A stretch of 64,000 nt of DNA from Nannocystales bacterium (GTDB lineage: Bacteria; Myxococcota_A; Polyangia; Nannocystales; Nannocystaceae). The stretch's first letter is position 1. Each line of letters begins with the position of its first letter. A program made the position numbers and the translations under genes. The stretch is from contig JBOEGF010000036.1 of assembly GCA_050633305.1 (NCBI GenBank), forward strand, positions 32,001-96,000. The letters run 5' to 3'. A model generated the notes under the pieces. The model saw only the letters and a list, made by a program, of their open reading frames with translations, had not been told where the DNA came from and did not search any database. Shown here in pieces: positions 5,080-50,786 of this stretch.

Positions 5080-5175
5080 CGGCCCGCGGTTAGAATAGGC
5101 CGTCTTGGCCCTGCGGGGACACGCTCCGACGCGGACGGCCGCGACAGGGCGGGAGCGGTGCTTTAGTCTGGGTCT

Positions 5176-5697: not shown

Positions 5698-5718
5698 CTC
5701 GGCTGCTCTGTGGGGTCG

Positions 5719-6429: not shown

Positions 6430-6604
6430 ACGCTTGGGTGCTCCAGCGTATCGCGAACGCGGGGGCCCTGCGTTGACGTTCTCTTTCCAACGTCCGGACC
6501 CGGAGCGGAACCGCACCATGCGGCCCAGATCTCGAGCGGGATGGGACCGGATGCAGCTCCTGCACAAAGCGCCCCATCTCCGGTCCATGTCGCTAAGGTC
6601 AGGC

Positions 6605-7237: not shown

Positions 7238-7362
7238 GGACCTCCAAAGCGCTGTTCTTGGGGGTCCTCGGCCCCTTGGCGCTCGCCCTTGGCCAATCGT
7301 CTCTCGTCGACGACACTGTCGGCGCGTCCAGGGTCCAGGCGACCCAGAGCGCCCAAGAAGTC

Positions 7363-27742: not shown

Positions 27743-28004
27743 GCCGATTCCTTCGTGTTGTGAGCGTCGCCCCTCGGTGTCTGCGGGAATGCTAGGCCGA
27801 CGCACGTCGTGACGAGGGGCCTGCCGGTGCGACCCCCTTCGTCGGTGGGGGCGCCGGATGCCGAAGAGTACGTGCTCGTGCCGCCGCGCAGACAGGAGAG
27901 ACTCCACCGTTCGCTACCGAAGCGAGCAGCTCGCGGCGATCTGACGCGAAGACGGGGCCCGAGGCGGAAGTCCGCAGGAACCCGACAGTTCGGTGAAAGG
28001 CGTT

Positions 28005-28121
28005 CCTGAGTTCCACGACTTCGGCCTTGTACGCGTCGGAGAACCTCCGCCGCTTCCTCCTGGACACTTGGTTCCCGATTCTCTCTTCGGTCGGGGGTGT
28101 CCACCAAACCGGGGAAGTTCA
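28005..28121 (-). mobile_element. IS3-family remnant: left inverted repeat plus the first ~20 codons of orfA
   Basis: TGAACTTCCCCGGTTTGGTGGACACC end (TG-initiated) followed by MSRRKRRRFSDAYKAEVVEL, the usual IS3 OrfA start; the rest is missing. Confidence 0.75.
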
Positions 28122-30050: not shown

Positions 30051-30051
30051 A

Positions 30052-30077
30052 GTGGAGGCGCCGGGAGTCGAACCCGG
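30052..30077 (-). mobile_element. att site: displaced 3' fragment (T-arm and acceptor strand) of tmRNA (ssrA) or of a tRNA
   Basis: Minus strand CCGGGTTCGACTCCCGGCGCCTCCAC forms a T-stem/loop plus CTCCA end; no 5' half is adjacent. Confidence 0.75.
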
Positions 30078-30888
30078 TAGGGACAACAGCCGATCGTGAC
30101 CGATCGTTAACCATCGTTGCCCCTGAAACCGCCGAGGGAGATGGGTCGAGCCCAAATCGTGTCGACGGCGTCGCCGATGTTGGCCGATCGTCGCCCCTCG
30201 ACTGTCGTGAAACCACGACAGAGATCGACGCGGCAATATCCGAGCTGGAGCGGGGGAGGGTGGACCTGGCGCTGGACCGGCTGAGAGCGTTAGCTCTTAC
30301 CGTCCGCCACGACCGATAGCCGGCCCGCGTCGCAATCGAGCGGCGCCAACCCGCTCACACCGCTGATGTGCCGCCGCCTGATATGGGAAGCGTCGCCCGC
30401 GCTGGGTACCCGATCTCCGAGGTGACGGCGCCCTGTTTCCCATATCCCCATATCCCCCTAATACTTGCGGAACAACCGGCCGGCGGACGCGTCTAGTTCG
30501 TCAAACAGGTCTCGGCTCATTTGGGCAAAGTTCTGGACGACCATACGAGCGTCCTCGATATCCACGTAGCACTCGGCGAGTTCGCCCATCGCGCGAACGA
30601 CATCATTTGAGTGAAACCCAACGTCCAGATTACGGCGATGCTGATTGAGTGCGAGTCAACGCCGGCGCTCTCTTTCAATCTTGGAGACTTGAGGAGTCCC
30701 AAGAGCCCGAGTCAGATTGGCGCGGTGCCCGTTGGAATGACGCGAGCCCCAGCCGAGGGCAGCTGGAGCCGATCCACTACCGCCATGCTATCGATCGAAG
30801 GCGGGGTCGATTTCTCCGATAGACCGGCGGAGGTTGGTCGGACCAGCCAGATCGATGTTCCCGCACCGACGCGCGGCAGCATCCCGCG

Positions 30889-32028
30889 CTACTTACACGT
30901 GCAGACCTGCACGCCGCGTGCGAGCTGCCATCCACCGGGACCGTCGACCAGATGGACGGGCTGCTTCGGTCGCGAAGCTGCTCGGCAAAGCGTGCAAACC
31001 CTGTTCGCACCTGAGAGATAGGTCGCGCCTGGCCGCTTCCGGTAGTTGCCATCGCTGCGGACCCATTGTGGATCGAGGCCCGAAGGAAGACTGGCCGCGA
31101 TCACGCCGTAGGCCGCCGCGTTTGTCTCTGCGCCGTGGTGAGGTGCTGTCACCAGGGGCGTACGTGTGGCCGGCACGGAGCGCAACGAGGCCAGGTCGGA
31201 GTCCGCGCTGAAGATGACGGCTGAGTTGTTTGGGTCCTCGGGGGCCACGAAGACCAGGGACTCCCGGTTCGCGACGCTCAGCCGAAGGAATCGCAGCGCA
31301 CTGACCTTGCGGCGAAGCATGTGCGCTGTCAGCTCGACGGAGTTGATCGGGTGAAGGAATGCCTCGCCGCCCGCGGGCGTTCCGCGCCGTCGCGCTTCCT
31401 CGAAGTCGAACCACCTAATTCTCGCGCCATGGTGATGAGCGGCTCTCGCGACCTTGCGGATCCGTGCGGCCGCCTGCACCGCCTCAATCCACAGGGCCCC
31501 TCGTGCGCTCCCAACGAGATCGGTCGACGGAAGCCAGACGCCGTCTGCAAGCCCGTCTAGGATGTCCGGTGCCAGGGGATCCTCCAAACCGAGCGCCGCT
31601 TCAACCCCATCGAGGTCAACGTCTACGTCCTCCCCGCGTTCCGACCCCTCGCGGGCGTCGGGCGACTCCAGGGAGCCCGCCTCCTGCTCGGCGCGCACGT
31701 CCGTGAGCAGTTCGTCGAGGAAGTCTGCCGGCCGGACGATGAGATCTACAAGGCGCTCTGTCCACCGCCCGGGGAGCCACACGTCGCGGACCACTGCAAG
31801 GGAGGCCTCTAGCAGCCCGACAAGACCCTCGGCGTGATCGGCATCGGCATGCGTGCACACGGCCACGTCGATCGCGGGCGTGGGCCGCACCAACATCAGT
31901 TGGGCCGCGAACACCGTGCGCGCGCGACCGCCATCCACGAGTATCGTCTTGCCGTCCGCGCGTTCGAGCAGGAACGCATCCCCTTGGCCCACTGGGACTG
32001 CCGTGAACGTGGCGACCACGTGCGGCAT
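30889..32028 (-). CDS. MBL-fold metallo-hydrolase (ComEC/Rec2-like)
   Basis: VGQGDAFLL, LVDGG, THADADH, FSADS, APHHG motifs; C-terminal CxxC...CxC. Confidence 0.85.
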   Translation of the reverse strand: MPHVVATFTAVPVGQGDAFLLERADGKTILVDGGRARTVFAAQLMLVRPTPAIDVAVCTHADADHAEGLVGLLEASLAVVRDVWLPGRWTERLVDLIVRPADFLDELLTDVRAEQEAGSLESPDAREGSERGEDVDVDLDGVEAALGLEDPLAPDILDGLADGVWLPSTDLVGSARGALWIEAVQAAARIRKVARAAHHHGARIRWFDFEEARRRGTPAGGEAFLHPINSVELTAHMLRRKVSALRFLRLSVANRESLVFVAPEDPNNSAVIFSADSDLASLRSVPATRTPLVTAPHHGAETNAAAYGVIAASLPSGLDPQWVRSDGNYRKRPGATYLSGANRVCTLCRAASRPKQPVHLVDGPGGWQLARGVQVCTCK

Positions 32029-32107
32029 CGTACAGATTGACGGATGCCAATTGGAGTCGGGCTTGGTATCGGCTGCCGTGAGGGTGTTCGTCCAGTATCC
32101 TGGGAGG

Positions 32108-32794
32108 GTGACGCTTCCGCCCAAATTCTTGGAGGCCGACTTCGACCTACTCGGATCCCTGCTGGAGTTCGACGTCGAGCGGAGGTTCGGACGTAAGGTT
32201 CAGGTCCTGCATGCCTTCCTGAACAACGACTCGGTCGTTCGCACGGCCCACCAGCAGCGCCGCGAATGGAAGTCGCGGGCGAAGCCGGACCGGGCCTTCG
32301 AGAACCTCGGCTCGGAAGCTCGCCACTGGTACACATTCAACGCGGGTGGTCGGACCGAGGCACAGCTCAACGTCGGGATGTTCGGCGGCAGGGATGGGCA
32401 CCTCCGAATCGGGCTTGGCTTCGAGATGACCGAAAGAAAGGGCGGGCGGCCCGCGGCCGTCCAGTTCATCTTTGCGGCCTTCGTCAAGCTGCTGAAGGAG
32501 CGGACCGAGCTCGTGCACAACGTCTCGCACTTCGTGGAGGAGATGGGCCTCGAGGTCGAGTTCTGGGGACCATCGTCAACCGAACTCGAGATCGTCGGGA
32601 CGTCCGACGCGCTTCGGTTTATCACCAGCCTGACCAGGACGGCGCACTGGGTCTTCTTGGGCAAGCTCCTGCGCCTCGACACCGATGCGGCGGTTCTTGC
32701 AGAGCCGGCCGACCTGGCCTCGGCGATCGACGACGTGTTCCGGGGCATCCTGCCGATCTGGCGGGAAGCCAACGTTGTGGGCTCGTTGGGGTAG
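32108..32794 (+). CDS. Hypothetical protein
   Basis: GTG start with SD GGAGG; 228 aa; NAGGRTEAQLNVG...LRIGLGFE. Confidence 0.7.
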   Translation: MTLPPKFLEADFDLLGSLLEFDVERRFGRKVQVLHAFLNNDSVVRTAHQQRREWKSRAKPDRAFENLGSEARHWYTFNAGGRTEAQLNVGMFGGRDGHLRIGLGFEMTERKGGRPAAVQFIFAAFVKLLKERTELVHNVSHFVEEMGLEVEFWGPSSTELEIVGTSDALRFITSLTRTAHWVFLGKLLRLDTDAAVLAEPADLASAIDDVFRGILPIWREANVVGSLG

Positions 32795-33562
32795 TCGAGC
32801 AGCATCTATCCGGTAGCACGCATGTCGGGGATGACGGTCCGAGGCGTGTGCATGAACTTTCCTGTTGAGGTAGAGCCCGTATCGTTCGACTCCATTTCGG
32901 CGTCGGGCCGCGAGATCGATTCGCGGTATCTGGTGCCGCTCCGCCTGATGCGGGACGACGTGCTCCTCGTTGACACCATGCAGGTAGTTCCTCGCGAACG
33001 CACGGAAGAGCGGCGGGCGGACGATGTGGGCCAACATACGAGAGTCGGCGCGACCAACAGACGATGAACTATCCAGCCGCGGCCGGCTCCGGCATCGCTC
33101 GTCGAGCAGGCCGACCGATTCCCGGGAACGTGGAGTGGCCCCGGCGCTACCTCCTCGCGGCCGAGCGCTGGCTCGTGCTCACACTCGGGGTCGAGGCCGC
33201 CGCGTTCGCGCGCTGCGAGTCATTCTCCATTCTCCGAGACCCATCGGAAGAAACACGCGACGTTCTACGCCGACCCCGTTCCCGGCTTCCGTGATCTCGA
33301 CCTCGAAATAGTTGGTCGGTGATCGGGGGCAGCCTCTGGGAGCGGTTCCCGGACGACCGGGAAGAGTCGCCGTCGCCTTTGGTCGTTTCGTCAGTGCTAT
33401 CCCAGGGCTGGCGGGAGGTACGAACTCGAGAACCCTGACGAGGTGCTTGGGGTTGTTGGTCGGTCGGTCTCGCTAGCCTGCCGCGCGCGCACGCCGGCGA
33501 CCACCGAGTGGGTTCGAGCCAGCTAGAAACGTCCGGCGGAACTCGAGCCAGCCGCGTTCCAG

Positions 33563-34870
33563 CTAGTCAGTCGGCGCTGGCTGGAGTGTCCTGCCATCAA
33601 GATCCAGGTACAGCTGCGCCGCGTCGTAGGGGCAACGTCGGGTGCCTCGGATCGTCCAAGGTTCGCGCATGCAGGTCTCGGCTCGTTGAGGCGCATCGCA
33701 GCAGGAGTACAGCGGGCACATCCAGCGAGCGGCTTCCTCCGATCGAAGCGACTGAACCAGGTGCGCCATCGAGCGAATGAGAAAAACCGCCTGCTCGCCC
33801 GGGGTCTCACGCCCTCCGGCAAAGACCTGCCCCTGGGCGTCCTCCATCGACGGCAAGGGAACCTCCTCGAAGAGCGGCCTGACGTCCAAGGATTGCTCCG
33901 GCGATTCGGGATCTGGCAACCGGTCCAGCGGGAACCGGCGCTCGCCGTTTCGGTTGCGCGCCAGGCTCAGGAGGGCGATCTCCTGGTACCATCTTAGGGC
34001 GACCAGGAGTGGGTCCTCGTCGCCTGCAGCGGCGTGGTGCTCGACGAACTCTTTCAGTGTCGCAGTGATCTGCGCCACCGTCCGATCGTAGGTCGCTGCT
34101 AGCGTGTGTCTCCGGCACCAGTCATAGACCTCCTCTCCCGACGGGTCTGTGCTGTTTTGGCCCATGTCGGAGAAACCATCCAGCAAGTTGAAGAGGTGCG
34201 GCCCTGGGGTCGGGTGTTGGAGGGCCCAATGGCACATTGCGATACGTTGCCGTGGGGTGTGGAGCCCGACCGTCGCCAAGATCCGATCAATCGCGACGTA
34301 CTCGAACGACGTCGATTCCAGGACGGGCTCGTCGTCGGCGAACAGCACCTGCAGCGCAACGGAGTACGCCTCCTTGATCTCCCAGGGGCCTACGCTGTGA
34401 TGCATGATCTCGCCAGAGATATTGTCGACGAACTTTGCCTTGGCCACCATCACTGGCTGCGACTCGGCGTCGATCGTCGCAGCTTCAAGGCAGTAGCCCT
34501 CGTAGGCCCACGGCGTCCCACTGCCCCAGGTCTCCCGGGGTTCCACCGCACGCCGAAGTCGAGGCTGAGCGAAGTACCATGGGTCATCTATGGCGGATGG
34601 ATCGTCTGTCAGTGGGAGCGTCACCGCCTCCCCCATGTGCCGAACTGCGCGCTTCGTCGCGTGGACCGAGTCGAGGAAATGAATGAAGTCGATCGCCCCG
34701 TACACCGAGCACAAGTCCTGCAAGAGGTGACCGTACTCGTGCATGAACGTCCACAGACCGTGGGGAAGAGGCTGTCCCGTATCTGGGTCCAGCACATCCT
34801 CGCGAAACCATATGTAGAACGCGCTCGGCCGGTAGTAGGAGCGCCCTGAGCTATCGTGGCGGATTGGCAT
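33563..34870 (-). CDS. Hypothetical protein with HEXXH zinc-metallopeptidase motif and C-terminal Cys cluster
   Basis: TFMHEYGHLLQD; later EIKEAYS (possible third ligand); CPLYSCC...C...CPY. Confidence 0.75.
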   Translation of the reverse strand: MPIRHDSSGRSYYRPSAFYIWFREDVLDPDTGQPLPHGLWTFMHEYGHLLQDLCSVYGAIDFIHFLDSVHATKRAVRHMGEAVTLPLTDDPSAIDDPWYFAQPRLRRAVEPRETWGSGTPWAYEGYCLEAATIDAESQPVMVAKAKFVDNISGEIMHHSVGPWEIKEAYSVALQVLFADDEPVLESTSFEYVAIDRILATVGLHTPRQRIAMCHWALQHPTPGPHLFNLLDGFSDMGQNSTDPSGEEVYDWCRRHTLAATYDRTVAQITATLKEFVEHHAAAGDEDPLLVALRWYQEIALLSLARNRNGERRFPLDRLPDPESPEQSLDVRPLFEEVPLPSMEDAQGQVFAGGRETPGEQAVFLIRSMAHLVQSLRSEEAARWMCPLYSCCDAPQRAETCMREPWTIRGTRRCPYDAAQLYLDLDGRTLQPAPTD

Positions 34871-35111
34871 CGTTCGACCTGTGACTGTGTTCGCGCACCC
34901 GCTGCACGCGGCGCGAGTCTCCAAGATACGCGAGGCGGGCCCCTTCATTCGCTATGTGGACCAGAATGGGCCGTTGGCCTGATATTGATCGGTCAGGCCC
35001 GCTCTCCAGCACATGGCGGCCTTCAGCAGCGTCAGCCTGGTTTGTTGGCAATGAGCGACGTTGGAGGCGCTCTGGCCCGGTTCAGCGTATCCTTCGCTCC
35101 TGCACTCGCTG

Positions 35112-35936
35112 ATGGACACGACAAATCTCCATTCCGAGCTCGAAGTGGTTCTTCGCGCTGGCACCCACCAGCTCGTCTTCATTGACGACGGTGGAGCCGG
35201 GCACCACACTATGGACCCCGATATCCTTGTTCAGGACCATCTTAGTTTCACCGCGGTCATTGTCCCAGCGTGCTCCTTTATCCCGTTGAACGACGCCTTC
35301 GTTTCGTGGCTGTCCGAGGTGCAGAAGGACGCCCCGTCCGTCACCGAGCTTCATGCCACAGCACTCATCAACCCGAAGCGCGGCCAGCCTTGGCGGGACG
35401 TCAAGGATGTGGACGTGCGAGCCGGGCATCTCCGGCGCGCCGCCGACGTTTTCCTCCCCCATGTGGAGACCGTCATTCACGCCCACATCGGCAAGGAGCA
35501 GTACGAATCTCTCCTTGCCTCGCATGCCGAGCAGGTGGATGGCCTCTACGACCATGTCAAGAAGGACCTCACGAAACACAAACATGGCCTCGAACTCGTG
35601 ACGCTGCAGGCGGTCGCAAAGCACGTGCAGAAGCGCGGGGTTCCTTCCGTAGTATTCGAGGATGAGGGGCGCTACAGGGTGAAGAACAAGGACGAATGCA
35701 CGGTGAAGTTCATGTTCGATCCCGTCGTTCCGATGTGGAGAGGTGCTGTTGTCTACCAGCCTTCGCACGCGTGGCCAGGGCTGCAGGTCGCAGACATGCT
35801 GGCAGTTGCATTCGCGCGCGAGTACGTCACCGCTCAACGGGTGCGGATTGGCAAGCACCCTCTCCCTTTCGATCGTGTTTGCAAGCGAATCCGCGAGCAG
35901 GTCGCCGAGAAGAAAGTCTTCGCCTTCGACGCCTGA
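35112..35936 (+). CDS. DUF3800 family protein (RNase H-like acidic motifs)
   Basis: VFIDDGG, ELHAT, FEDEG and GLQVADMLA motifs. Confidence 0.78.
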   Translation: MDTTNLHSELEVVLRAGTHQLVFIDDGGAGHHTMDPDILVQDHLSFTAVIVPACSFIPLNDAFVSWLSEVQKDAPSVTELHATALINPKRGQPWRDVKDVDVRAGHLRRAADVFLPHVETVIHAHIGKEQYESLLASHAEQVDGLYDHVKKDLTKHKHGLELVTLQAVAKHVQKRGVPSVVFEDEGRYRVKNKDECTVKFMFDPVVPMWRGAVVYQPSHAWPGLQVADMLAVAFAREYVTAQRVRIGKHPLPFDRVCKRIREQVAEKKVFAFDA

Positions 35937-36090
35937 TGTGTGGACACGCGGCCTGCCACTTTCCGTTCTGGGCGCAGAGCGCCCGGATGCCGGTCCGAGA
36001 TTGGGGCGGTCGCGGAGAAGGCCCGGGCGGTGCGAGCGCGTGCCCGTGTTGCCGGCCGAGTTCGTCTTGGCAATCTGCGGCTTGTCGATC

Positions 36091-36120
36091 TTGACGGTCC
36101 TGCGTGGGGATGGATATCTT
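36091..36120 (+). promoter_or_regulatory. Putative sigma70 promoter for the 36208-39068 operon
   Basis: TTGACG-N18-TATCTT, ~90 bp upstream of the ATG at 36208. Confidence 0.45.
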
Positions 36121-36207
36121 GGCACCGTAACGCCCGTTGTACGTTTGCCTTGGCGGCATGTGCTCTTAGGCGGCCGCTCCATGAGCATCGGGAGTTTGTG
36201 AGGGCAG

Positions 36208-36975
36208 ATGGGCCACATCCGGCTTGGGAAACTTCCACGCACGAGACGCTGGGCAGAGGTCGTCGACCTCTTGGGCCTCGGTGCGGGCTCCGCTGCGGTC
36301 GCCGCCGCCACCCTCGACGCGGCCGAAGCGGACCTACGCGGCGCCCCTGAAGACCCCGCTGTCCTTCACGCTTTCTGGCTGCTGACGCAGCTCCCTGACG
36401 CGGCGCGTAGCAGCGACTTTGCCGGCGCACTTCGTGACATCGGGGTCCAGGTCGAGAGCGCGCCCACGGTCGCCGAGCTCGGCGCCGCGCTTACCCGGGC
36501 CATCGACCGGCACGCGCTCCAACAGCGCAACATGTCCGACCTCGGCGAGATGGCACAGCTTGCTGTCGTCCAGAGCCTGACGGGTCTGCTGCAAGCCCGC
36601 GTGCCGACGCTCTTCGGGACTACGCCCGACGACGTGCGCTCGGAGGTCGCCAAGCTCGCGACCGGAAAACAGTTTGGGATGCTCGCCAAGGAGTTCTTCG
36701 CCGGCTTCTCGCAGCGGTTCCTCACCTACTACACCAGCCGCGAGCTGCCCTCCCACGTCGGACGGGGCCGAGCGTTCCCGGAGCTGACGGACCACGAAGC
36801 GTTCAACCAGGCGCTCGACATCCATTGTCAGCAGGCGTCGCGGATCGTCGAGACCTTCGCGGGCACCTGGTACTCGAAGAGCCGATACGAGAAGACGCTA
36901 ACTCCCGAGCGCATGGCGGGGTTTGTCGGGTACGCGCTGGGCAAGATGCGGCGCGAGCTGAGGCGGGGGGGCTGA
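36208..36975 (+). CDS. Conserved-looking helical protein (MGHIRLG...), QatB-like partner of the downstream QueC-like enzyme
   Basis: N-terminal Met-Gly; TGATG stop/start overlap with the QueC-like gene. Confidence 0.75.
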   Translation: MGHIRLGKLPRTRRWAEVVDLLGLGAGSAAVAAATLDAAEADLRGAPEDPAVLHAFWLLTQLPDAARSSDFAGALRDIGVQVESAPTVAELGAALTRAIDRHALQQRNMSDLGEMAQLAVVQSLTGLLQARVPTLFGTTPDDVRSEVAKLATGKQFGMLAKEFFAGFSQRFLTYYTSRELPSHVGRGRAFPELTDHEAFNQALDIHCQQASRIVETFAGTWYSKSRYEKTLTPERMAGFVGYALGKMRRELRRGG

Positions 36976-39068
36976 TGTCGTCGTCCCTGCCTCGGAGTGT
37001 GCGTCACGTCGCCTGTGGGAGCGCCGCTCGCAGCGCCCCCGAGGATGCGCTGCGCCTGAAGCTCCACGGGACGTCGCCGAGCTTCAGCGTCGACGTCGCG
37101 GGCCTCGACCAACAGCTGACGACTCGTGTCGCCCCGCGCTTCAGGGATCTCATCCGCCTCGCGTCCTACGTCCTCGTCGCAGACCAGGCGGTCACCCGTG
37201 GGGAAGAGGACTCCCTCGACCTGGGGAAGCGCTGGCGCCGCGAGTTCAAGTTCGTCGTCGGCGTCGAGGACCTCAACGTTTGGGACTGCGACGAGATGCG
37301 CGACGTTCTCGAGTCGACGCTGCATACCCTCACCGACGACTTCTACACGTTCGAGTTCGTGCCGCAGCTCGACTCCGAGCCTGAGCAGCTCAACTTCGGC
37401 GCCGTGGGCGACGACCCCTTCCTCCCCCTCGAAGGCTTCGCGTCGGTGCAGCTGTTCTCCGGTGGGATGGACTCGTTCACGGGGGCGGCCGAGGAGATCC
37501 TGGGCAGCGATCGAGACGTCATCCTCGTGAGTCACCGGTCGGCGACCAAGACTTGGAAGCTTCAGCGGGACCTGATCGACGACCTCCGCCAGCGAGCTCC
37601 GTCGCGCCGCATCCTCCACGTCGCTGTGAGCATGGTGAAGCATGCGAAGGAGCTTCGCCGCGAGCGAACCCAGCGGTCGAGGTCGTTCCTGTACGCCGCC
37701 CTGGCGGGGACGGTGGCCAACCTGGTGGGCCTCGACTTCATCCGATTCTACGAGAACGGGATCGTCGGCATGAACCTCCCTGTGCTACCGCAAGTCATCG
37801 GCACGCGGGCGACGAGGACAACCCATCCGGAGGTGCTGCGGGGCTTCTCAAAGATCCTCTCGCTCCTTGGCTCCCAGAGTATGCGGGTCGAGAACCCGTT
37901 CGAGTTCTTGAGCCGCGCCGAGGTGGCCGGGCGGTTGAACGGCGCCGGTGCCATCGACGTGCTGAGCAAGACCGTCAGCTGCGCGCACGTGCACAAGAGC
38001 AGCAAGATGCATCCGCACTGCGGCGTCTGCTCCCAGTGCGTGGACCGGCGCATCTCAATGCTGGCGGCCGGATTCGCCGAGCATGACCCTGCCGAAGGCT
38101 ACGCTGTGGACATCCTCCGCGGTCAGCATCCCACGGGCGAGGGCGACGTCCTGACCGAGCGCGACCGCACGATGATTGTCGGATACGTCCACGCCGCTGA
38201 CCGCTTCCGAGACCTCGCTTCGCCACTCGAGCTTCAGCACCGGTATCCCGAGGTCACCCGAGCGCTACTCGGCCTGACCGAGCGCTATGTCATCGACGCC
38301 GATGAGGCGCTCCGGCGTGTCTACGAGGTGCACAAGCGCCACGGTGATGGCGTCGGTAGGGCCGTCGAAACGCTCTTCGACTCGGACACGGTCAGGGCGC
38401 TGCGGAAGCCGAACGGCATCCCTGCTGACAGCCTCCCCGCGCTCTTGGGTGCGCGCGGCCTTGGCATGTCCGGATCCCATCAGCAGAAAGAGGAGGTGGC
38501 TCTAGAGATCGTGCCGGCAGATGCCGAGCATGTCTTCCGCCGGCAGGGGCAGAACTGGACGCTCAAGTACCGGGGCGGCAAGCCGCTGATCATGAAGCAC
38601 ACGAAGGGGCTGAACTACATCAGCTTCCTGTTCCGGCACCCGAGTGAGGAGCTGACTGCGTTCGCGCTGATCGACCTAGACGAGGGGCGTGAGGTCGGCC
38701 GGCACTCGCTGTCTACGTCGTTCTCGATCGACGCGAAGACGCTCAGCTCGGTGAAAGGCAAGATGCGGGAGCTCAAGTCCGCCCTCGCCGACGCGATCGA
38801 GTACTGCGACGACGCCGGAGCCGCTCGCATCCGGGCTGAGATCGAGACGCTTGAGGACTACGTGAGTCGGGAGACCGGGCTCGGGGGAAAGGTCCGGCGG
38901 GAGTCGCCGGACCGGAAGAGGGCGAGATCGTCGGTGTCCAATGCCATTACGCGCGCTATCGGCACGGTGCGCAAAGAGCACCCAGCCTTCGCCGACTACC
39001 TAAAGCGGCAGATCCAGACCGGGTTCTTTCTCCAGTATCGCGACGTCAGCACCCACTGGCTGTTGTAA
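36975..39068 (+). CDS. QueC/QatC-like PP-loop enzyme (7-cyano-7-deazaguanine synthase family) with an extra C-terminal putative DNA-binding domain
   Basis: LFSGGMDS, QRSRSFLY, YENG, TRTTHP, NPF, SC...HCGVCSQCVDRR; C-terminal FRRQGQNWT...KGLNYI...GLGGKVR...RARSSV...TG. Confidence 0.85.
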   Translation: MSSSLPRSVRHVACGSAARSAPEDALRLKLHGTSPSFSVDVAGLDQQLTTRVAPRFRDLIRLASYVLVADQAVTRGEEDSLDLGKRWRREFKFVVGVEDLNVWDCDEMRDVLESTLHTLTDDFYTFEFVPQLDSEPEQLNFGAVGDDPFLPLEGFASVQLFSGGMDSFTGAAEEILGSDRDVILVSHRSATKTWKLQRDLIDDLRQRAPSRRILHVAVSMVKHAKELRRERTQRSRSFLYAALAGTVANLVGLDFIRFYENGIVGMNLPVLPQVIGTRATRTTHPEVLRGFSKILSLLGSQSMRVENPFEFLSRAEVAGRLNGAGAIDVLSKTVSCAHVHKSSKMHPHCGVCSQCVDRRISMLAAGFAEHDPAEGYAVDILRGQHPTGEGDVLTERDRTMIVGYVHAADRFRDLASPLELQHRYPEVTRALLGLTERYVIDADEALRRVYEVHKRHGDGVGRAVETLFDSDTVRALRKPNGIPADSLPALLGARGLGMSGSHQQKEEVALEIVPADAEHVFRRQGQNWTLKYRGGKPLIMKHTKGLNYISFLFRHPSEELTAFALIDLDEGREVGRHSLSTSFSIDAKTLSSVKGKMRELKSALADAIEYCDDAGAARIRAEIETLEDYVSRETGLGGKVRRESPDRKRARSSVSNAITRAIGTVRKEHPAFADYLKRQIQTGFFLQYRDVSTHWLL

Positions 39069-39180
39069 GAGCTGGCTCTCGACGACGGCCGGCAGAGCGA
39101 GGTGAATTCCGAGCGCTGTTTTTCGCACTCGGAGGGATCCGTTTGCATGCAGGCTGTGTACGGGCCGAAAAAACTATGCC

Positions 39181-39221
39181 GCTACGCCTGACGTAGCGCC
39201 TGCAACGCGGCCCGTAGCGCC
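39181..39221. repeat. Two tandem 21-bp units, each a GC(T/A)ACG-N5-CGTAGC palindrome
   Basis: GCTACGCCTGACGTAGCGCCT followed by GCAACGCGGCCCGTAGCGCC. Confidence 0.7.
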
Positions 39222-39269
39222 TCCGGGTTGAGCCATGTCGGCTCGCAAATACCTGACCCGGAGGTTCAC

Positions 39270-39773
39270 ATGAAGCCCCAAGAAAAAACTGAGCGGAGCT
39301 GCCGAAGGTGTGGCGGACTCGTCGGCACCCGATGCGCTGTCCACGCCCACGATAAGCACACGCGCGCCAAATCCGTGGCCCGCGATCGCGTGATGACCGT
39401 CTGCCCGTGCCGCGCCGAACTCGATCAGAAGACGAGTGGGGAGCGGGGCCTGGAGCTGTGCGCGGCCACGACGGTCAGCGACGCTCGGAGTGCAGCTCAT
39501 AGGCCTCGGGTCCAGCGGCCGCCATCGCAACGGCTTGCGCACGCCGTCCGTCTTGTTCTGGGCCGTCGCACCTTTGACCGTGTCCTCGGCCCCACGATGG
39601 CGGATGTGTATCTTGAGTGGGTCGAGGCCCATTCTTCCGGAGATCTGGTCGAAGCGAAGCGCGTGAGAATTCGGTCGGCTTTCTGCTTGTCTTGGGCCGC
39701 GGTGGCGTATCTGTTGGGACGCGTCGCGGTGGTCATGGACGACTTTCGGAAGAACTTCGGTCCGAAGCGTTGA
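39270..39773 (+). CDS. Hypothetical protein; C-terminal half resembles a permease-prefix-type domain
   Basis: SD GGAGG; RPP..RL...RRTFDRVLGPTMADVYLEW. Confidence 0.5.
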   Translation: MKPQEKTERSCRRCGGLVGTRCAVHAHDKHTRAKSVARDRVMTVCPCRAELDQKTSGERGLELCAATTVSDARSAAHRPRVQRPPSQRLAHAVRLVLGRRTFDRVLGPTMADVYLEWVEAHSSGDLVEAKRVRIRSAFCLSWAAVAYLLGRVAVVMDDFRKNFGPKR

Positions 39774-39873
39774 GGTCGATTGAACGGGGAAGCCGCTCTC
39801 GCTGGAGCTCTGCTTCGTACTGTTTTGGGGACAGCGACGATGGTTCCTCGGTCCCCCGCGTCCGCGTCCGCGT

Positions 39874-40128
39874 TCAGATTTTTTTGCGATATTCGTTTGC
39901 CACGACCTCAACAATCATCCCGCCGGGCGCATCCACTCCGATTGAGAGAAGAAGGGTCGTCAGGAGGCCGTCAACCCTTCTTTGAGCATCGTTCGAAAGC
40001 GACGCATACTTCGCGAAATCCCCTCCGGGGATCAGCTCCTCGATGTCAGTCGCGAGAGCCCCTTTCCTCAGCTGTTCAGGCTCCGAAAGGCTGCGATATG
40101 CGTCAGCGATCTTCTTGCGGCGTCCCAT
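39874..40128 (-). CDS. Small hypothetical protein
   Basis: MGRRKKIADAY... 84 aa; no recognisable motif. Confidence 0.4.
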   Translation of the reverse strand: MGRRKKIADAYRSLSEPEQLRKGALATDIEELIPGGDFAKYASLSNDAQRRVDGLLTTLLLSIGVDAPGGMIVEVVANEYRKKI

Positions 40129-40302
40129 ACCCGATCTAAACACACTGTTTCACCTCTTCCAACGGCAGGCCATGGCTCATGGCCAAGGGGCTGGCTGGAC
40201 GGGGGTGGACGGAGGTTGGGGTCCTCGGCTTTTTGGGTTTGGGGACCTGGCGCTTTGGTGCTCAGGTGTTCGGCCGGTGCTATGGTTCCGACGCTCGTGT
40301 CA

Positions 40303-40560
40303 ATGGCACCACACGGCGCGCACTTCAGGAGCGTGTTTGAGCAGCCCGAGTGTGCCACGGTAGAGCTGCGGCCCGCGCCCTCGACCGAGCACTTCTCCGG
40401 AAGCGACTCGTCAACGCGGAAGGCTGAGCCCGGGAGCCTCGGCCGCCCCGAGGCCTGCACCAACGACCTGTTCAAGGAGAAGTGCGACGCTGCGTGCGAG
40501 CACGTGTTCGAGAGCTACTGCGGCGACGGCCCAACCAAGTGCGGAGCGGCATCAGCGTGA
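40303..40560 (+). pseudogene. Chimeric remnant: Rpn/YhgA-like transposase N-terminus joined to the extreme C-terminus of a type I restriction subunit (HsdR)
   Basis: MAPHGAHFRSVFEQPE...EPGSL resembles PHDALFKxVFxxPE...EPGSF; PEACTNDLFKEKCDAACEHVFESY resembles the HsdR C-terminal P..YT.ELF..KC..V..HV.ESY. Confidence 0.55.
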
Positions 40561-41603
40561 CGGACGAGTACAAGCGCGAGCTACACATCCCCCTGCCACA
40601 AACCGACACTGGGAAGGTGCAGATGGTCTGCCCGCGCGGCGACTGCGAGCCAGGTCGGTTCTTCCTCGGCGACGCTCCTAGCGAACGACCCGAAGCCGGC
40701 AACAGCACTCCGACACGCCGCGAACCAGGGACCGACGGCGTGACTTGCCCGTATTGCGGCAAGGACGATTCTGATGATGCGTTTCGCCACCCGGACGACG
40801 CTGCGTATCTCGAGAAGGCCATCGATCACGGTGTTGAAGAGGTTGCGCACGAGATGATTGGGGAACTGCTCGACAACCACTTCACCCAGCCTTTCAAGCG
40901 AATGGGACGGGCGTCTAGGCGCAGCGGGTTCAGTGTGACCGTGGAGTCCCGACCGTATCGTCAGCAGCCGAAGTCCCCACCCCGGCCGCCGGCTCGGGCG
41001 GACCTACCGCGCAACGTGACCTGTACCGCATGCGCGCGCGCGTACGGAGTCTTCGCTATCGCCCTCTTCTGTCCCGACTGCGGCTCTTCGAACGTCCTGG
41101 TCCACTTCGCCCGCGAGCGCCGGCTATGCGAGGATGAACTTGCCAGCGCTCGCGAGACGTCCGATCGTGAAAGAGCTCTGCGAAAGCTGGGTAACGCCCA
41201 CGAAGACGCTGTTTCAGCCACCGAGGCGTATCTCAAGTCTATCTATGCCCTCGTCATCGGCGTTCGAAGACCTGCCGATGGGGAGAAGAAGCTAACCAAG
41301 GTCGGGAACGCCTTCCAGAGCATCGAAAGAGGCAAGAAGCTCTTTGCGCCGCTTGGGGTCGATCTCTACGGGATGCTCATGGAGGGGGAACTCAAGTTTC
41401 TGGACGCTTCGATGGCGAAGAGGCACGTGGTCACGCACAACCTCGGAGTCGTCGACAAGAAGCACGTAGAACGAACCGGCCAGGGGAAGGCCGGGGAGCT
41501 GATCAGCCTCACAGAACGGGACGTTCGGCGTCACCTCGAACTGGTCGAGCGGGTCATCTCCGACCTTGAGCGGAGTGTTCCGGAGTTGCAGCCGTCGCCC
41601 TAA
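40557..41603 (+). CDS. Zn-ribbon protein with C-terminal HEPN-like RNase motif
   Basis: CPRGDC, CPYC, CTAC, CPDC pairs; FQS...KRHVVTHNLGVVD (R-x4-H). Confidence 0.72.
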   Translation: MTDEYKRELHIPLPQTDTGKVQMVCPRGDCEPGRFFLGDAPSERPEAGNSTPTRREPGTDGVTCPYCGKDDSDDAFRHPDDAAYLEKAIDHGVEEVAHEMIGELLDNHFTQPFKRMGRASRRSGFSVTVESRPYRQQPKSPPRPPARADLPRNVTCTACARAYGVFAIALFCPDCGSSNVLVHFARERRLCEDELASARETSDRERALRKLGNAHEDAVSATEAYLKSIYALVIGVRRPADGEKKLTKVGNAFQSIERGKKLFAPLGVDLYGMLMEGELKFLDASMAKRHVVTHNLGVVDKKHVERTGQGKAGELISLTERDVRRHLELVERVISDLERSVPELQPSP

Positions 41604-42054
41604 TCACCATGTGCCGAAGTCCCCGAGCCGAACTGTGCCACGACTGGTGTCTGGGCGAGTCATCTTCGCGCGGTCGAGCCGCCTTCCGAGGTTTGCAGGA
41701 GTGGTTGGTTCTGGCGGCGACGGTTCAGCCGGTGGACGAAGTCTTCGAGCGCGTACGCCACGCAGAGTAGGTGGATGGCTTACGAGGCTATGGCCTCCAA
41801 CGGTGGCTGATCTTGCAGGAAGCCATCCGCGAATCCATGCCGAACGGGCCCCTCGGGGCTGATGAGGTGATAGTAGACCCGGTTGCGGAACGACTGACCG
41901 GAGCTTTTTCGGCTCACATGAGGCTATCGTACGTGAGGTCCCTGGTGCCAGTGCCACACCCTTGAGGCCACGAAGCGTCTTCTGCTGGGCCTCGGCTTCC
42001 GCGCTTCTCGAGACCAGTGCATACTTCGAGGAGCGGACCCGCTGAAAACCATCC

Positions 42055-45000
42055 ATGGAGATCCCTGACATCGATTTCACGCGAATAAGGTCACTCGGCC
42101 CCGGCGGGCAGCGCGATGGGTACGAGCAGTTTATCTGCGAACAGGTCGCTCAAGAGCAGCCCGCGCCGGACGCCAAGTTTGTGTCTCTCCACGGAGCGGG
42201 CGGTGACGGCGGGGTCGAGTGTTACTGGACTCTCGCGGACGGCACCGAGTACGGCTGGCAGGCCAAGTATTGGACGGACCACAGCGCCGTCGACAAAGGG
42301 CAGCTCGATAAGTCCGTCAAGGCTGCTCTCGAGCAGCACCCGAAGCTGGCGCAGTACACGATCTCCATCCCCGCCGACCCGACTGGTCGCACCGGGCGGA
42401 AGGCCAAGTCTCTCCTCGCGAAGATCCAGGATCCGAAGGGATGGCTCGACGGCTGGAAGGCCATGGCTGCGCTACGCGGTATGTCTGTCGTTTTCGAGGT
42501 CGAATGGAGAACGAACATCGTCACGCGGCTGACCCGTCTCGACGTCTCCGGAACCCAGCGGCGCTACTGGTTCGACGTCGATGTGCTCGCCGAGCGGTGG
42601 TGGGACGACCGGAAGCAAGACGCGGTCTCAGCCGCTAGGCCCCGGTACATGCCGGAGCTCAATATCGAGGTGCCCGCCGCACGGGCCATAGCCGCGCTCT
42701 GCTCGGACGACGAGTGGTGGATGGTCGTTCTCAGTCAGATTGAGACGGTCAAAGAGGCCGCCAGTTCGCTCCGCTACGCCGATGAGACGGTGCTGGCCGC
42801 GGATCTGGCCGCAGCGGGTGACGCAGTTGCAAGAGTTGTGGACGCACTTTCCGCGTGGCACGCATCCCGCGGCACGACAGCGATTGACGATCTCGCCCAA
42901 GTGCTCGAAGAGTCCTTAAACAGCGTCAGCGACCAGGAGGCCCTCGAGGTTGCGGCGATGGACGCGAAGTACGCCGACGCTACCTGGGATACTCCTGGCT
43001 GGCGGCAGTTTCAGGCCGAGTACATGGTCTGTTTTCCGGCGGCAGCCGTCGATGGGTTACGGGAACTCGGTAAGAAACTCACGGAGACCTCCGAGGTTCT
43101 ACTGAGCCCGACTGGAAGGCTCGCAGGAGCCCAGGTCGCACTCATCACCGGTCCGGCCGGAATCGGCAAGACGTACCTCGCCCTGGACTCAGTCGTCCGC
43201 CGACTAGGCCAGGGGCGCCCAAGCGTCATGATGCACGGTCGATGGTTCAGCGACCACGAGCCGCTAGCCCATCTCCGCGGTGTACTCAGCATGCCGCCGG
43301 ACCTGAGCAGCGAAGATGCGATCGCGCTCCTGGATCAGCATGCCCGTGTTGTGGGCGCCACAACCCTCTTGGTCGTCGACGCGCTCAACGACACCCGCCC
43401 ACGGTCGCTCTGGCGGGACAACCTCGAACGGATCATCGCCACGATCGGCAGGTATCCGCACGTCCGGCTTCTGCTGACGGCGCGCACCCACTATCTCGCC
43501 CACGTTCTCCCGCCCGGATTGACGGTCGCGCAGTTTGAACACACCGGCTTTGAAGGAGTCGAGTTCGAAGCTGTTAGCGAGTACGCCGCTTTTTACGGCC
43601 TCGAGCCCCCGACGTCCCCGCCGATTCACGGCGAGTTTAACAACCCGCTGTATCTGCGTCTTGTATGCGAGGCTCTTCAGGCTACCGGCCGCTCGTCTCT
43701 TGAGCAGGCCAATATGGGCCTCGACGAGCTGACGAAGATGGTCCTCGACGACGCCAACGCTCGTATCAGCGACCGTATCGATGCGTCCCCGTCGGACCGG
43801 GTCGTTCAGCGTTCCATGCATGCCCTGGCCACCGCGCTTGCGGACGGCGGAGGCGGTCCGCTCAATCGAGCAGATGCACAGTTCGTGCTCACCCCGATCT
43901 GGTCGGATCGGAGCGCGGAAAAGTCGCTGCTCGACGCGCTCATCGCCCAGGGCCTCGTCGAGGAAGACGTCATTTCGGACGGTAGCACCTACGGCGCCGA
44001 CGTTGTCGCCATTACCTTCGAGCGCATTGGACACCACCTCATCGTGTCCGATGCCCTCTCCGGTGTAACCGATGCGGACGGCGTCCGTGCGGAACTCGGC
44101 TCACGCCTTGGGCGGCTCATCGGTCTCGGTGGGATAGTCGATATCGGCGTCCTCGAGGCGACCTCCGTCGTCGTCGCCGAACGCCTCGGACTTGAGCTAA
44201 CCGAGTTCGGGGCTGAAATCGGGGACGATGACGCTCTTGCCACGGCAGTCATCGCAGGCATTGGATGGCGTACGGCGGACTCCATCAGCGACGAGACCCG
44301 TCTCATCGTGACGAACGCGCTGCGACGCGAAACCACCCGCAAGGGCGCGCTCACGATGCTGTTTCGGCTCGCCTCACGAGCTGGGCATGGTCTGAACGGC
44401 GAGTTCCTCCACGGGCTCCTCGGCCGAATGAGTCTGGGTGAGCGTGACGAGTTTCTTCCCGCTTGGCTCCACAGGACCCACGGCACTAGCGGAGGGGTCG
44501 ATCGGCTCATCCGCTGGGCGCGGGAGAAACCATTGGATCTGGTCGGTGCGGACACAACTCGGCTGTGGGTGACCGCGCTGCTATGGATGGCCGGGGCCAG
44601 CGACCGACGCGTCCGCGAGCCCGCGACCATCGCCGCCGCCCGCCTCCTCGCTCGTCACCCGGACCAGGCGGCAGGGCTGTTGGAGCGGTTCACCGTGGTG
44701 AACGACGAGTGGGTCGTTGAACGCTCCCTTGAGGTGGCCTACTCGGCGCTCTTGAGGAGCGGCAGCACCAACGACTGGGCAGCCGCCGCAGGCGTGGTCT
44801 GGAACCGCATCTTTTCCGTGCCCATGGACGTGACTCCGAATGCTGCGGTTCGTGACGCCGCCCGCAGCATCCTCGAAGCAGCGAATGAACGTGGGGCGCT
44901 CCCCGCTACCGTGACCGTTGCGCAGTTTCGGCCGCCGTACACCAGCGACTGGCCTCCTACTTGGCCCACTGAAGCCGACATTGGGAGCTATGACAACGTC

Positions 45001-46224
45001 GGCTACCCGAAGCTTGTGTACTCGACCACCAGCGATGACTTCTTCACCTACAAGGTTAGTTCCGAACTCAAGGACCGTCCCGGTATCGACGTGGACGCAG
45101 CAGCCAGATGGGTCGTGCAGGAAGTCATCCGCCTTGGGTACCGGAGTGACAGGCATGCCGAGTTCGACGGCTATGTGATGAGGACCTACGGCGGCGGCCG
45201 TTCCAAGCCTGCTTGGGTTGAACGGATCGGCAAGAAATACCAGTGGATTGCGCTCAACCGGCTCATCGGCATGGTCTCCGACCACGTACCGAAGACCCCT
45301 AGTTCGTGGGACCCCCCGGCCCCGCCTGTCCCCGGCCCTGTCTCCGGCAGGTGCCGGCAGGTCGACCCGACAGTCCTCGAGTTCCCGCCTACTGACGCCG
45401 CGGAAAGGTCGTGGGTGCCTGGCTACGATTGGGCACCCGCAAGCGGCAATACCGACGCCGAATGGATCGTTGACGACACTGACCTGCCCACCATCGCCGT
45501 AACCGACGCCGTCTTCGACGGCCGTCAGTTCGTCGTCCTTTCCGGCACCTACGACTGGACCAATGTCACCGACACGGGCAAGCCCGCCCGCCGCATATGG
45601 ATCCATCTCGTTCCCCACCTCGTCGCTACCCCGGATCTACCCGCCGCTCTTGGCGAGGTCGAGGGTCGCGACCTCCTCGGCCACGAGCTGTCCCGTTGCC
45701 CCCTGATGCCCGACGGGTACGTCGGCGAGTATCCGTACGGCCATCACCATGGTGAGAGCATTCACGTAAAGCAACACGAGTGGCGAGAACCGCTTGGGGT
45801 CCCGACGAGCCCGGCTGCGTGGGACATCCTCGGCGAATACGAGTATGCCCCCGGCAATCAGCACAGAATTTCCCTCGATGCTCCCGCCCCTGAGTTCTTC
45901 GGTCCGGTACCCGGCGACCTCCGCTGGAACGGGCGCAATGGCTGGAGCGACAAGAACGACCAGATCATCGCCGTTGTTCGCCACACGAACAACACGGGCC
46001 AGAACGAGCTCCTCATCGACGCCATCTGGCTCGAGCAGTGGCTTGTTGGCGAAAAGAAGTCCCTCATCTGGGTGGAGAGCACGGCCAAGGAAGCCTTCCG
46101 GGGGCTCGGTGGTAAGACCCACCCCGGACGCCTCACTCGCTCCCAAGTGCACTCGTGGGCACCCGGCAGGGACGCACAGACCTCAGCACCATTCTGGGAT
46201 CGTCTTCCAGCACGCGGAGAGTAG
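42055..46224 (+). CDS. AVAST type 2 (Avs2)-like STAND NTPase with N-terminal PD-(D/E)XK nuclease effector
   Basis: GDGGVEC...GWQAKY nuclease motif; GPAGIGKT Walker A; LLVVDALND Walker B; NPLYLRL; ERIGKKYQWIA sensor motif typical of Avs2. Confidence 0.85.
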   Translation: MEIPDIDFTRIRSLGPGGQRDGYEQFICEQVAQEQPAPDAKFVSLHGAGGDGGVECYWTLADGTEYGWQAKYWTDHSAVDKGQLDKSVKAALEQHPKLAQYTISIPADPTGRTGRKAKSLLAKIQDPKGWLDGWKAMAALRGMSVVFEVEWRTNIVTRLTRLDVSGTQRRYWFDVDVLAERWWDDRKQDAVSAARPRYMPELNIEVPAARAIAALCSDDEWWMVVLSQIETVKEAASSLRYADETVLAADLAAAGDAVARVVDALSAWHASRGTTAIDDLAQVLEESLNSVSDQEALEVAAMDAKYADATWDTPGWRQFQAEYMVCFPAAAVDGLRELGKKLTETSEVLLSPTGRLAGAQVALITGPAGIGKTYLALDSVVRRLGQGRPSVMMHGRWFSDHEPLAHLRGVLSMPPDLSSEDAIALLDQHARVVGATTLLVVDALNDTRPRSLWRDNLERIIATIGRYPHVRLLLTARTHYLAHVLPPGLTVAQFEHTGFEGVEFEAVSEYAAFYGLEPPTSPPIHGEFNNPLYLRLVCEALQATGRSSLEQANMGLDELTKMVLDDANARISDRIDASPSDRVVQRSMHALATALADGGGGPLNRADAQFVLTPIWSDRSAEKSLLDALIAQGLVEEDVISDGSTYGADVVAITFERIGHHLIVSDALSGVTDADGVRAELGSRLGRLIGLGGIVDIGVLEATSVVVAERLGLELTEFGAEIGDDDALATAVIAGIGWRTADSISDETRLIVTNALRRETTRKGALTMLFRLASRAGHGLNGEFLHGLLGRMSLGERDEFLPAWLHRTHGTSGGVDRLIRWAREKPLDLVGADTTRLWVTALLWMAGASDRRVREPATIAAARLLARHPDQAAGLLERFTVVNDEWVVERSLEVAYSALLRSGSTNDWAAAAGVVWNRIFSVPMDVTPNAAVRDAARSILEAANERGALPATVTVAQFRPPYTSDWPPTWPTEADIGSYDNVGYPKLVYSTTSDDFFTYKVSSELKDRPGIDVDAAARWVVQEVIRLGYRSDRHAEFDGYVMRTYGGGRSKPAWVERIGKKYQWIALNRLIGMVSDHVPKTPSSWDPPAPPVPGPVSGRCRQVDPTVLEFPPTDAAERSWVPGYDWAPASGNTDAEWIVDDTDLPTIAVTDAVFDGRQFVVLSGTYDWTNVTDTGKPARRIWIHLVPHLVATPDLPAALGEVEGRDLLGHELSRCPLMPDGYVGEYPYGHHHGESIHVKQHEWREPLGVPTSPAAWDILGEYEYAPGNQHRISLDAPAPEFFGPVPGDLRWNGRNGWSDKNDQIIAVVRHTNNTGQNELLIDAIWLEQWLVGEKKSLIWVESTAKEAFRGLGGKTHPGRLTRSQVHSWAPGRDAQTSAPFWDRLPARGE

Positions 46225-49400: not shown

Positions 49401-49655
49401 GCGAGTGACTCGCCAGAACTTGTTGGTGTCTGTGGCGAAGGTGAGCTTGACGGTAGGCTCGCCACCGGCCCACGAGCGAAGCGACGACCGGGCCGAAGAG
49501 CTGTGAGGGAGTAGTAGTCCGGCCCGGACCGCATGGGCCAGCGTGGACTTTCCGATATCGTTCTCGCCAAAGAGAATATTCAGCCCCGGACAGAACTCCA
49601 GCTCCGCGTGCTGCACACACTTGAAGTCGTCGACTGTCAGCCGTAGGAGTCTCAT
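46410..49655 (-). CDS. Rad50/SbcC (YhaN)-like SMC-type ATPase
   Basis: GENDIGKST Walker A; long coiled coils; LSAGTQDQ signature; LILDD Walker B. Confidence 0.9.
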   Translation of the reverse strand: MRLLRLTVDDFKCVQHAELEFCPGLNILFGENDIGKSTLAHAVRAGLLLPHSSSARSSLRSWAGGEPTVKLTFATDTNKFWRVTRNYGDPGASELRFSKDDTAYSSEATARKVDGQLRTLLRWGIKPPGGKGGARGLPESFLSHALLGEQVGAAQLLGLSLLKDADDTARAQLGLALEALAQDPLFKQVLTEAQGRVNEAYTPGGSKKKGKNSPFVQITEKINGLAHQIAILELQEEETERARERLEALTSELTLARATSKEAAALVTVVRARLDQTKAMLDAEDRLAVAAAKVSEIEQAVAGLATDAAAIAELDRASQAAQANDQACAASISAAETTLQEATSALQRAKSQSSHQQHALNKAKVESKLAQCEHRIEKLNSALKSAQAARVCETELSKARERTSVLHDSVATAQAERHALVAREREANENLETHRGLCQLARLREAHKSLGDARSAAEKRAALLVRARQSQAEAKNLRDQIKATACPTADEVQALTALRNELDVALAKVGVGLTVAVRPMTDLTLHVAIDGGPQQAVADASAPIDASRTIALILENVAELTVSAGSPDDHKLAAALQTRWEHEGVPTLTSTGAPDLVALGEVVRQSQARAQQLRQHEAEAASSLNDAAAHAETASAVERLSAKVAEREASMGGETLPKLELEAASKPGGWEDTIEADTAAADTTLRQAQKALASSREKEAQLAASLEAAERTEAAAATALQASTEGLDAEPREAASRIEAQLQHANTDRAEARQERDSLAEAGLAEVAAAHKAVEQATTALAQERDAGILAATLTKNAGEALVAARSRLDVETGHVEAMGLDAARHAACELAEALAKLPRPESPATDAELEATTASHVEADGLADRLRGDVRTAEGAFEQVGGEVTRDTLTSHREARDQARIREHEIELDYEAYRLLAKTLRDVENEDGAHIGQALGSQVGERFKSLTQDRYDSIRLNAHLATDAVQVAGVARSFGDLSAGTQDQLATILRLCIAEQLGSMLILDDHLAQTHRSRAAWFHKMLRRSADKIQIVVLTARPEDYLDLDELPQGKAPADFAGGSVRAINLDHVIERVASGAAEV

Positions 49656-50782: not shown

Positions 50783-50786
50783 GTCT

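Follow-up and report, generated by a model that had tools for sequence, protein, structure and literature searches.

The window analysed here, a stretch of 64,000 nucleotides (G000:C36:32001-96000) on contig JBOEGF010000036.1 of a Nannocystales bacterium, carries a two-gene module in which a small protein starting Met-Gly is encoded directly upstream of a QatC-like PP-loop enzyme with a fused C-terminal domain, followed by two palindromes. Comparison with related loci suggests that the module is a transcription switch of a prophage-like element, controlled by conjugation of a metabolite to the small partner protein. This reading is held at slightly less than even confidence and is put forward as the simplest account of four properties that occur together: a conserved catalytic core, an obligatory Gly2 partner, DNA-binding-type tails that are exchanged within the family, and matching repeats before an early operon. 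The parts of the module in the window are the following.

36208..36975, plus strand: partner protein of 255 amino acids (aa), starting MGHIRLG; predicted all-helical and the likely acceptor through Gly2 after Met removal.
36975..38414, plus strand: core of the QatC-clade PP-loop enzyme (residues 1 to about 480), with the PP-loop, the Thr280-x-Thr282 site and four zinc cysteines.
38517..39068, plus strand: fused C-terminal domain (residues 515-697), a predicted OmpR/PhoB-like winged helix with a two-helix hairpin before the recognition helix.
39181..39218, no strand: two 17-bp palindromes of the GCTAC-N7-GTAGC type with a period of 21, the likely binding site, by prediction, of the fused domain.

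The partner ATG is the first start codon past an in-frame stop, with GAGG six bases upstream, and the partner TGA (36973-36975) overlaps the enzyme ATG as TGATG. The enzyme open reading frame (ORF), at 36975-39068 on the plus strand, encodes 697 aa with the motifs SGGMDS (residues 162-167), QRSRS (233-237), ENG (260-262), TRTTHP (280-285) and CGVCSQC (349-355); the gene pair, overlap and motifs of the original prediction, made from the letters alone, are thereby confirmed. The comparison with QatC that had been called for there places residues 1-480 with the PADLOC QatC family (E 5e-51) and with the solved QatC chains 9zee (E 2e-27) and 9vlk (E 6e-26), and the score against the NCBIfam QatC model NF041925 is 191 bits, below its cut-off of 280. 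All of the QatC signature residues tested are present (SGGxDS, D-x4-R...WxR, RxR, ExG, HP, the Cys4 zinc site and Thr-x-Thr), as they are listed in PMC13329287. Among 75 homologues, D70, R75, R89, S162, G163, G164, D166, R234 and R236 are invariant, as are E260, G262, H284, P285, C336, C349, C352, C355 and Y376. A quick maximum-likelihood tree of 80 cores sets the 76 enzymes with an MGH partner on one side of a branch (SH-aLRT 96) and three canonical QatC and one other QatC-like protein on the other, with long branches and a small outgroup.

It is scarcely conceivable that the enzyme is a housekeeping QueC for queuosine synthesis. Databases label its homologues 7-cyano-7-deazaguanine synthase and there is a weak Pfam QueC match (E 1e-5); against this, the enzyme scores 17 bits with TIGR00364 (QueC), for which the cut-off is 150, its 697-aa sequence lacks the canonical motifs YxQxHxxE, VPxRN and YPDC (taken from PMC13329287), and the host has a canonical queC elsewhere (E 1e-68), together with two QueD-family genes, all on other contigs. 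The original prediction proposed that the enzyme attaches a 7-deazaguanine to Gly2 of the partner, as Cap9 does in type IV CBASS. The QueC-family fold, the N-terminal glycine acceptor and the QueC and QueD-family genes of the host are consistent with such chemistry. Nevertheless, this is very improbable, given that the reaction was borrowed from Cap9, the only enzyme for which attachment of 7-deazaguanine to an N-terminal glycine is established (10.1101/2025.04.06.647259; PMC13279940), whereas the site here is Thr-x-Thr. Thr280 and Thr282 align with Thr278 and Thr280 of QatC, which stand in place of the base-reading Tyr/Asp pair through which QueC and Cap9 bind deazaguanine (PMC13279940); among the 75 homologues Thr280 is found in 57 (Ser in 17) and Thr282 in 69. 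QatC was reported in PMC13376578 and PMC13639016 to be inactive with CDG and other deazaguanines. The absence of a CD-NTase, TGT, QueD, QueE or FolE gene from the window, as originally noted, was borne out among 70 of the window ORFs, scanned against Pfam, and no TGT-like gene or CD-NTase was recognised by inspection among the recurring neighbour families.

The partner accompanies this core with great regularity. The partner is followed by the enzyme gene at 112 of 113 related loci, and Gly2, whose invariance had been proposed as a check, was read from the DNA in 109 of the 113 at once and in two more on inspection, which makes 111 of 112 readable starts. In the remaining two, one start is cut by a contig end and the other (L113, 10001-10850) encodes Asp; L113 is also the sole locus without an enzyme, with just the first enzyme codons left, and is a single case. 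At the protein level Gly2 is found in 117 of 121 aligned partner proteins and in 126 of 130 diverse representatives with lengths of 245-275 aa, and the other four of these 130 resemble miscalled starts. A fusion of partner, enzyme and metallophosphoesterase (P0236) is without Gly2. The partner belongs to a large group: one search returned 540 relatives, of which the best 120 were listed, and 1732 clusters at 50% identity match its profile. It matched one protein in plasmids and none in annotated phages, and no family in Pfam, NCBIfam, PADLOC or PHROG.

Whether the partner descends from a common ancestor with QatB is at present a weak lead. Two profile-profile comparisons with QatB were not significant (probability about 1%, E 0.04), and there was no NCBIfam or PADLOC QatB match, results that do not support homology. 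The partner model is all-helical (pLDDT 90.5), and fold searches with it gave no Foldseek match and a best Z of 5.5, with no QatB listed, though the libraries may lack QatB, and so leave the relationship possible. The best ESM Atlas family is a cluster with 15% QatB members (score 0.88).

The structure of the pair was predicted as a 1:1 complex of enzyme residues 1-500 and partner residues 2-255. The median score of three runs was 0.94, compared with 0.00 for the best of three controls, and the mark applied to this score is reached by 116 of 157 solved pairs and by 2 of 215 mismatched pairs. At least 94% of contacts are common to the runs, and the partner pLDDT is at least 90. The predicted interface includes residues 2-11 of the partner and, on the enzyme, Arg75, the 264-282 loop, 337, 352-354 and 395-446, the regions that bind QatB in crystal structures. 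Judged by these interface residues, the model would place the partner N-terminus at the enzyme active site, which is the arrangement originally suggested.

The fused tail is predicted to be a winged helix of the OmpR/PhoB type, which agrees with the DNA-binding fusion that had been suspected. In the model of residues 515-697 (pLDDT 85.8), three strands and two helices are followed by an inserted helical hairpin, then by a long helix and a wing; the model matches CssR, BaeR, GlnR, ToxR, CadC and ArlR over its full span (Z 7.2-7.7, root-mean-square deviation 2.9-3.5, 83-95 residues aligned). Foldseek returned many OmpR/PhoB-family entries for the model, none at E 0.001 or better, this tail type had no match in Pfam, and a sequence search of the tail profile against solved structures was discarded as helical-hairpin noise. 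The same domain also ends STAND ATPases, TPR proteins and hydrolases. Most complete enzymes of the family end in a helix-turn-helix (HTH)-like tail of one of several unrelated types, and these are swapped between members: the window type, a second OmpR-like type, Trans_reg_C, HTH_17 and others, the five tail labels requiring 12 changes on the quick core tree.

The repeats downstream of the module follow the tail type. The two imperfect palindromes of the window (39181-39197 and 39202-39218), noted originally as operator-like, score above 30 of 30 shuffles of the 200 bases 3' of the enzyme stop, and the tandem pattern has one match in the 11-Mb genome. Within the same 200 bases, a tandem-palindrome score of at least 19 is reached at 28 of 36 loci with the tail type of the window enzyme and at none of 51 others (29 with the second tail type and 22 further loci), while GTCAC is found at 20 of the 29 second-type loci and at none of 58 others; these counts omit cut ORFs and loci with fewer than 120 downstream bases, retain near-copies, and use tail labels from BLAST, hidden Markov models and a pattern. 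Of the eight misses among the 36, four have a site that appears degenerate by eye, one has no site and three come from a subfamily whose site is about 4 kb away from the module yet in front of the HTH/replication operon. In this subfamily the site has left the module and is still before the operon, and therefore the site follows the promoter, not the gene.

The half-sites vary (GCTAC, GGGAC, GGAAC, GCGAC and GCCAC), with both arms changing together and staying complementary. Residue 656, in the predicted recognition helix, is Lys or Arg at 6 of 7 loci without GCTAC and at 1 of 23 GCTAC loci, a residue chosen post hoc, after viewing, in a comparison that covers about three lineages. When the DNA motif alone was used in a strict scan, 14 viral matches were found, 12 of which have a window-type tail fused to the enzyme within 6 kb. 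Looser scans gave 110 loci, some of them the same record, with a fused enzyme adjacent at 13 and nearby at 24, and another or cut tail protein adjacent at 8.

It is possible that these repeats are no promoter operator but serve as a replication origin (iterons), form an RNA hairpin or terminator, or are a small mobile palindrome, and that the tail binds them for another purpose or not at all. Four palindrome copies do lie within a DnaD-like phage replication gene (L272:8105-8188), as iterons do; on the minus strand the first of the two window palindromes has a terminator-like score, and the pair seen most often at the inner position of the arms is G-T (66 of 98 units). In-frame copies in Mu-like phages, at linkers whose relatives hold other palindromes, point the same way. 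This explanation is improbable for three reasons: first, the geometry is fixed at 6-5-6 with a period of 20-22 bp, and non-wobble mismatches are frequent (G-A in 11 of 98 units); second, the repeats co-vary with the tail type and with helix residue 656; third, the repeat occurs in tandem in just 1 of 401 Pseudomonadota genomes. A dispersed REP-like host repeat was rejected on this last count, and the one genome has no match to the enzyme alignment.

The in-frame copies are an observation in their own right. In Mu-like phages a near-identical tandem palindrome lies in frame, in variable linkers, inside genes for a portal protein, a repressor, a transposase and an unknown protein, with no tail protein (L266:2706-2743 (G608), L268:10430-10467 (G627), L095, L153, L196, L255, L273 and L274). 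It is carried by 5 of 80 relatives of the portal gene and 4 of 80 relatives of the unknown gene, and others hold different repeats there. These copies fit a decoy or cross-regulation, but also a small mobile palindrome.

Across the family the module is placed in prophage-like elements with the recombinase on one side and the early operon on the other, and the palindrome site is before the first gene of that operon. At the 66 loci of at least 13 kb, an integrase/DUF2924-operon gene is found in 46, an early phage-type gene in 54 and either in 63; a limit on these counts as support for a switch is that the neighbourhood profiles were built from the same loci as were counted and that the loci include near-copies. 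The Pfam families at viral loci are resolvase, sigma70_r2, HTH_17, primase, methylase and terminase (105 of 188 selected ORFs scanned), and the closest intact relative, L010, runs on into replication genes. The original prediction of a defence-island setting holds for the window copy; for the family as a whole the setting is this regulatory slot of prophage-like integrative elements. The family is spread over many phyla and is patchy, being present in 5 of 300 genomes of the host's class.

No tblastn match to QatA or QatD was found in the window, as had been noted, or at 114 module loci, many of them short-flanked, whereas 6 of 6 canonical qat loci match. The claim of a separate minimal system therefore stands in so far as there are two genes without QatA and QatD; the minimal arrangement is less new than was implied, because QatB and QatC alone already protect against some phages (PMC13279940). 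Two other QatC-like arrangements were seen on plasmids: in Agrobacterium (L087:3435-8327), another QatC-like enzyme with an XRE regulator, DUF3800 and a 192-aa partner without an annotated Gly2, and in Bradyrhizobium (L088:3818-5947), a QatC-QatD fusion protein. No description of the family or of the in-frame palindromes was found in the literature searched; the neighbourhood tables of PMC13329287 may include the family in their QatC cluster, and its supplement, as searched, has none of five terms for the neighbours.

The mechanism proposed for the switch is as follows. The QatC-like enzyme and the partner would form a 1:1 complex, and after removal of Met the enzyme would likely join a metabolite to the N-terminal glycine of the partner by ATP-dependent amide formation. 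This conjugation would then likely switch the fused winged helix as it binds the tandem palindromes before the early genes, and so control their transcription. Activation appears somewhat likelier than repression, by analogy to OmpR/PhoB-type domains. A molecule linked to phage or stress would be the likely trigger, given that QatBC is active in infected cells. A more specific version holds the module to be a one-component sensor-regulator, in which a phage-linked metabolite is ligated to Gly2 and the winged helix fires the early operon, and in which Mu-like phages of the same hosts have acquired operator copies several times in their own genes, as decoys or to tap the switch; taken with all these details it is unlikely.

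Several further observations weigh against a switch. The complex resembles the solved QatBC, and the score may pass by likeness; the fold match of the predicted tail is middling, with Z under 8. Two members have effector-type ends, a DpnII/MboI-like nuclease (L084:7001-9645) and a metallophosphoesterase (P0236). In the looser scans no tail is in view at 65 of the 110 motif loci; the promoter-like context is the same at 25 of these, the motif falls in frame within an ORF at 14, and the remaining 26 are of other kinds. When 34 virus records with no tail in view were searched over their full length, the tail was found in none, with two positive controls detected; five of the records are more than 90% complete. 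The same site also follows non-enzymatic proteins with the window-type tail (L167, L170, L176 and L190/L232), which were found through the DNA motif and close relatives, so that the site does not require the enzyme. In L010 the stretch immediately 5' of the module (4628-7765) encodes a LexA-like protein, an unknown protein of 396 aa and a protein that has the same tail but no enzyme, the last also found in L004 and L005; the regulator slot may thus already be filled. QatBC, moreover, protects without any DNA-binding domain (PMC13279940). Finally, the window copy retains both ORFs and the site without the target operon.

The window copy is an intact 3.2-kb remnant in a defence island with its target operon lost. 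The remaining features of the window that bear on it are given below.

39270..39422, plus strand: degenerate start of the element's first downstream gene, a small Cys-rich ORF; likeness to the related element stops at 39422.
30051..30077, minus strand: 27-bp exact duplicate of the 3' end of the transfer-messenger RNA (tmRNA), identical to G000:C7:7662-7688 (the tmRNA on contig C7).
30889-35936, 5' of the module: metallo-beta-lactamase-fold gene, two familyless genes (313 and 461 aa) and DUF3800.
42055-46224: Avs2-type STAND ATPase (PADLOC E 2e-259).
46410-53763, all minus strand: SMC-like ATPase, metallophosphoesterase and DrmD-like SNF2 helicase split into two ORFs.

Close relatives are similar (85-86% at the DNA level) over 36185-39422 and no further, the similarity breaking off within the first small gene downstream. 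To the left of this 3.2-kb piece is the tmRNA duplicate, likely an attachment-site or integration scar at the left of the island, and the piece has as neighbours Avs2, the metallo-beta-lactamase-fold gene, DUF3800, the SMC-like ATPase with the phosphoesterase, and the split SNF2 helicase. Contigs from public runs span 30051-42500 with 2 differences, and are probably from the source sample and not independent. With family representatives as queries, no integrase for this copy was found on contig C36 or in the first 12 kb of contig C7, and the window contains no tRNA. At 40258-40438 some 180 bases recur on several other contigs of the genome and in same-genus genomes. A short ORF at 27792-28067, whose start presumably resembles a transposase N-terminus, has no Pfam match.

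The main rival, held with somewhat less confidence than the switch, is that the module is a minimal anti-phage cargo of the QatBC type carried by prophage-like elements, the tail being taken from a neighbouring regulator and serving autoregulation or tethering and not signal output. All QatC signature motifs are kept, QatBC alone protects against some phages (PMC13279940), and the window copy has survived whole next to Avs2 and further defence-type genes, without a target operon. The dN/dS relative to L010 is 0.11 for the partner, 0.14 for the core and 0.20 for the tail, values that do not refer to the period after decay alone. There are members with a nuclease or a phosphoesterase tail, a helicase- or methylase-type neighbour is found at 22 of the 66 long loci, and the distribution in the class is patchy. 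However, HTH-like tails of several unrelated types exceed chance fusion, and the repeats lie 3' of the module before the early operon, even 4 kb off, and not at the module 5' end. An anti-phage role and a switch can both hold.

If the conjugation-controlled switch is correct, QatC chemistry would be coupled to a DNA-binding output, and a promoter reporter would provide a direct readout for the missing substrate and trigger. The reaction and the trigger of QatC were left as open questions in 2026 (PMC13279940, PMC13376578, PMC13639016), because activity could not be rebuilt in vitro (PMC13279940). The module would, in addition, represent a prophage switch of a new kind, in which covalent modification of an N-terminus takes the place of repressor cleavage or phosphorylation, in a large family found in many phyla whose partner is without a match in the four family libraries searched.

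Known regulators offer two points of comparison. As in OmpR/PhoB regulators (CssR, BaeR, GlnR, ToxR, CadC and ArlR), the predicted order of the tail is three strands, two helices, recognition helix and wing, and other family members carry Pfam Trans_reg_C tails; unlike these regulators, the input is a PP-loop enzyme and not a receiver, a helical hairpin of about 60 residues is inserted, and the sites for the window tail type are inverted repeats. SetCD, AcaCD and FseA are master activators of integrative elements, and by analogy the module would likewise be an element-encoded regulator that binds before an excisionase or early operon; none of the three is known to be controlled by a fused conjugating enzyme.

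Among enzymes, the module shares with Cap9-CdnD a QueC-family PP-loop enzyme and a partner with an N-terminal glycine (10.1101/2025.04.06.647259; PMC13279940), and differs in having no CD-NTase, no TGT-like Cap10 and no Tyr-x-Asp pair, and a core of about 480 aa where Cap9 has about 185; canonical QueC, at about 220 aa, is far shorter than the 697-aa enzyme. The closest likeness is to QatBC, for which the reference structures are PDB 9zee, 9zef, 9vlk and 9vll (PMC13279940, PMC13376578, PMC13639016): the core has all cluster-2 motifs and the Thr-x-Thr site, an all-helical Gly2 partner is encoded directly upstream, and contacts are predicted through a long loop and C-terminal helices with the N-terminus at the active site. 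Nevertheless, the partner starts MGH and has a short tail whereas QatB starts MGTS and has a long one, with no significant profile match between them, and the enzyme falls short of the cut-off for QatC and clusters separately from the three canonical QatC used for comparison. In summary, the module would work like QatBC yet is not a QatABCD system, as its enzyme falls short of the QatC equivalog score and the family is without qatA and qatD; it is further distinguished from QatC by a swappable DNA-binding-type tail, matching repeats and a location in the switch region of prophage-like elements.

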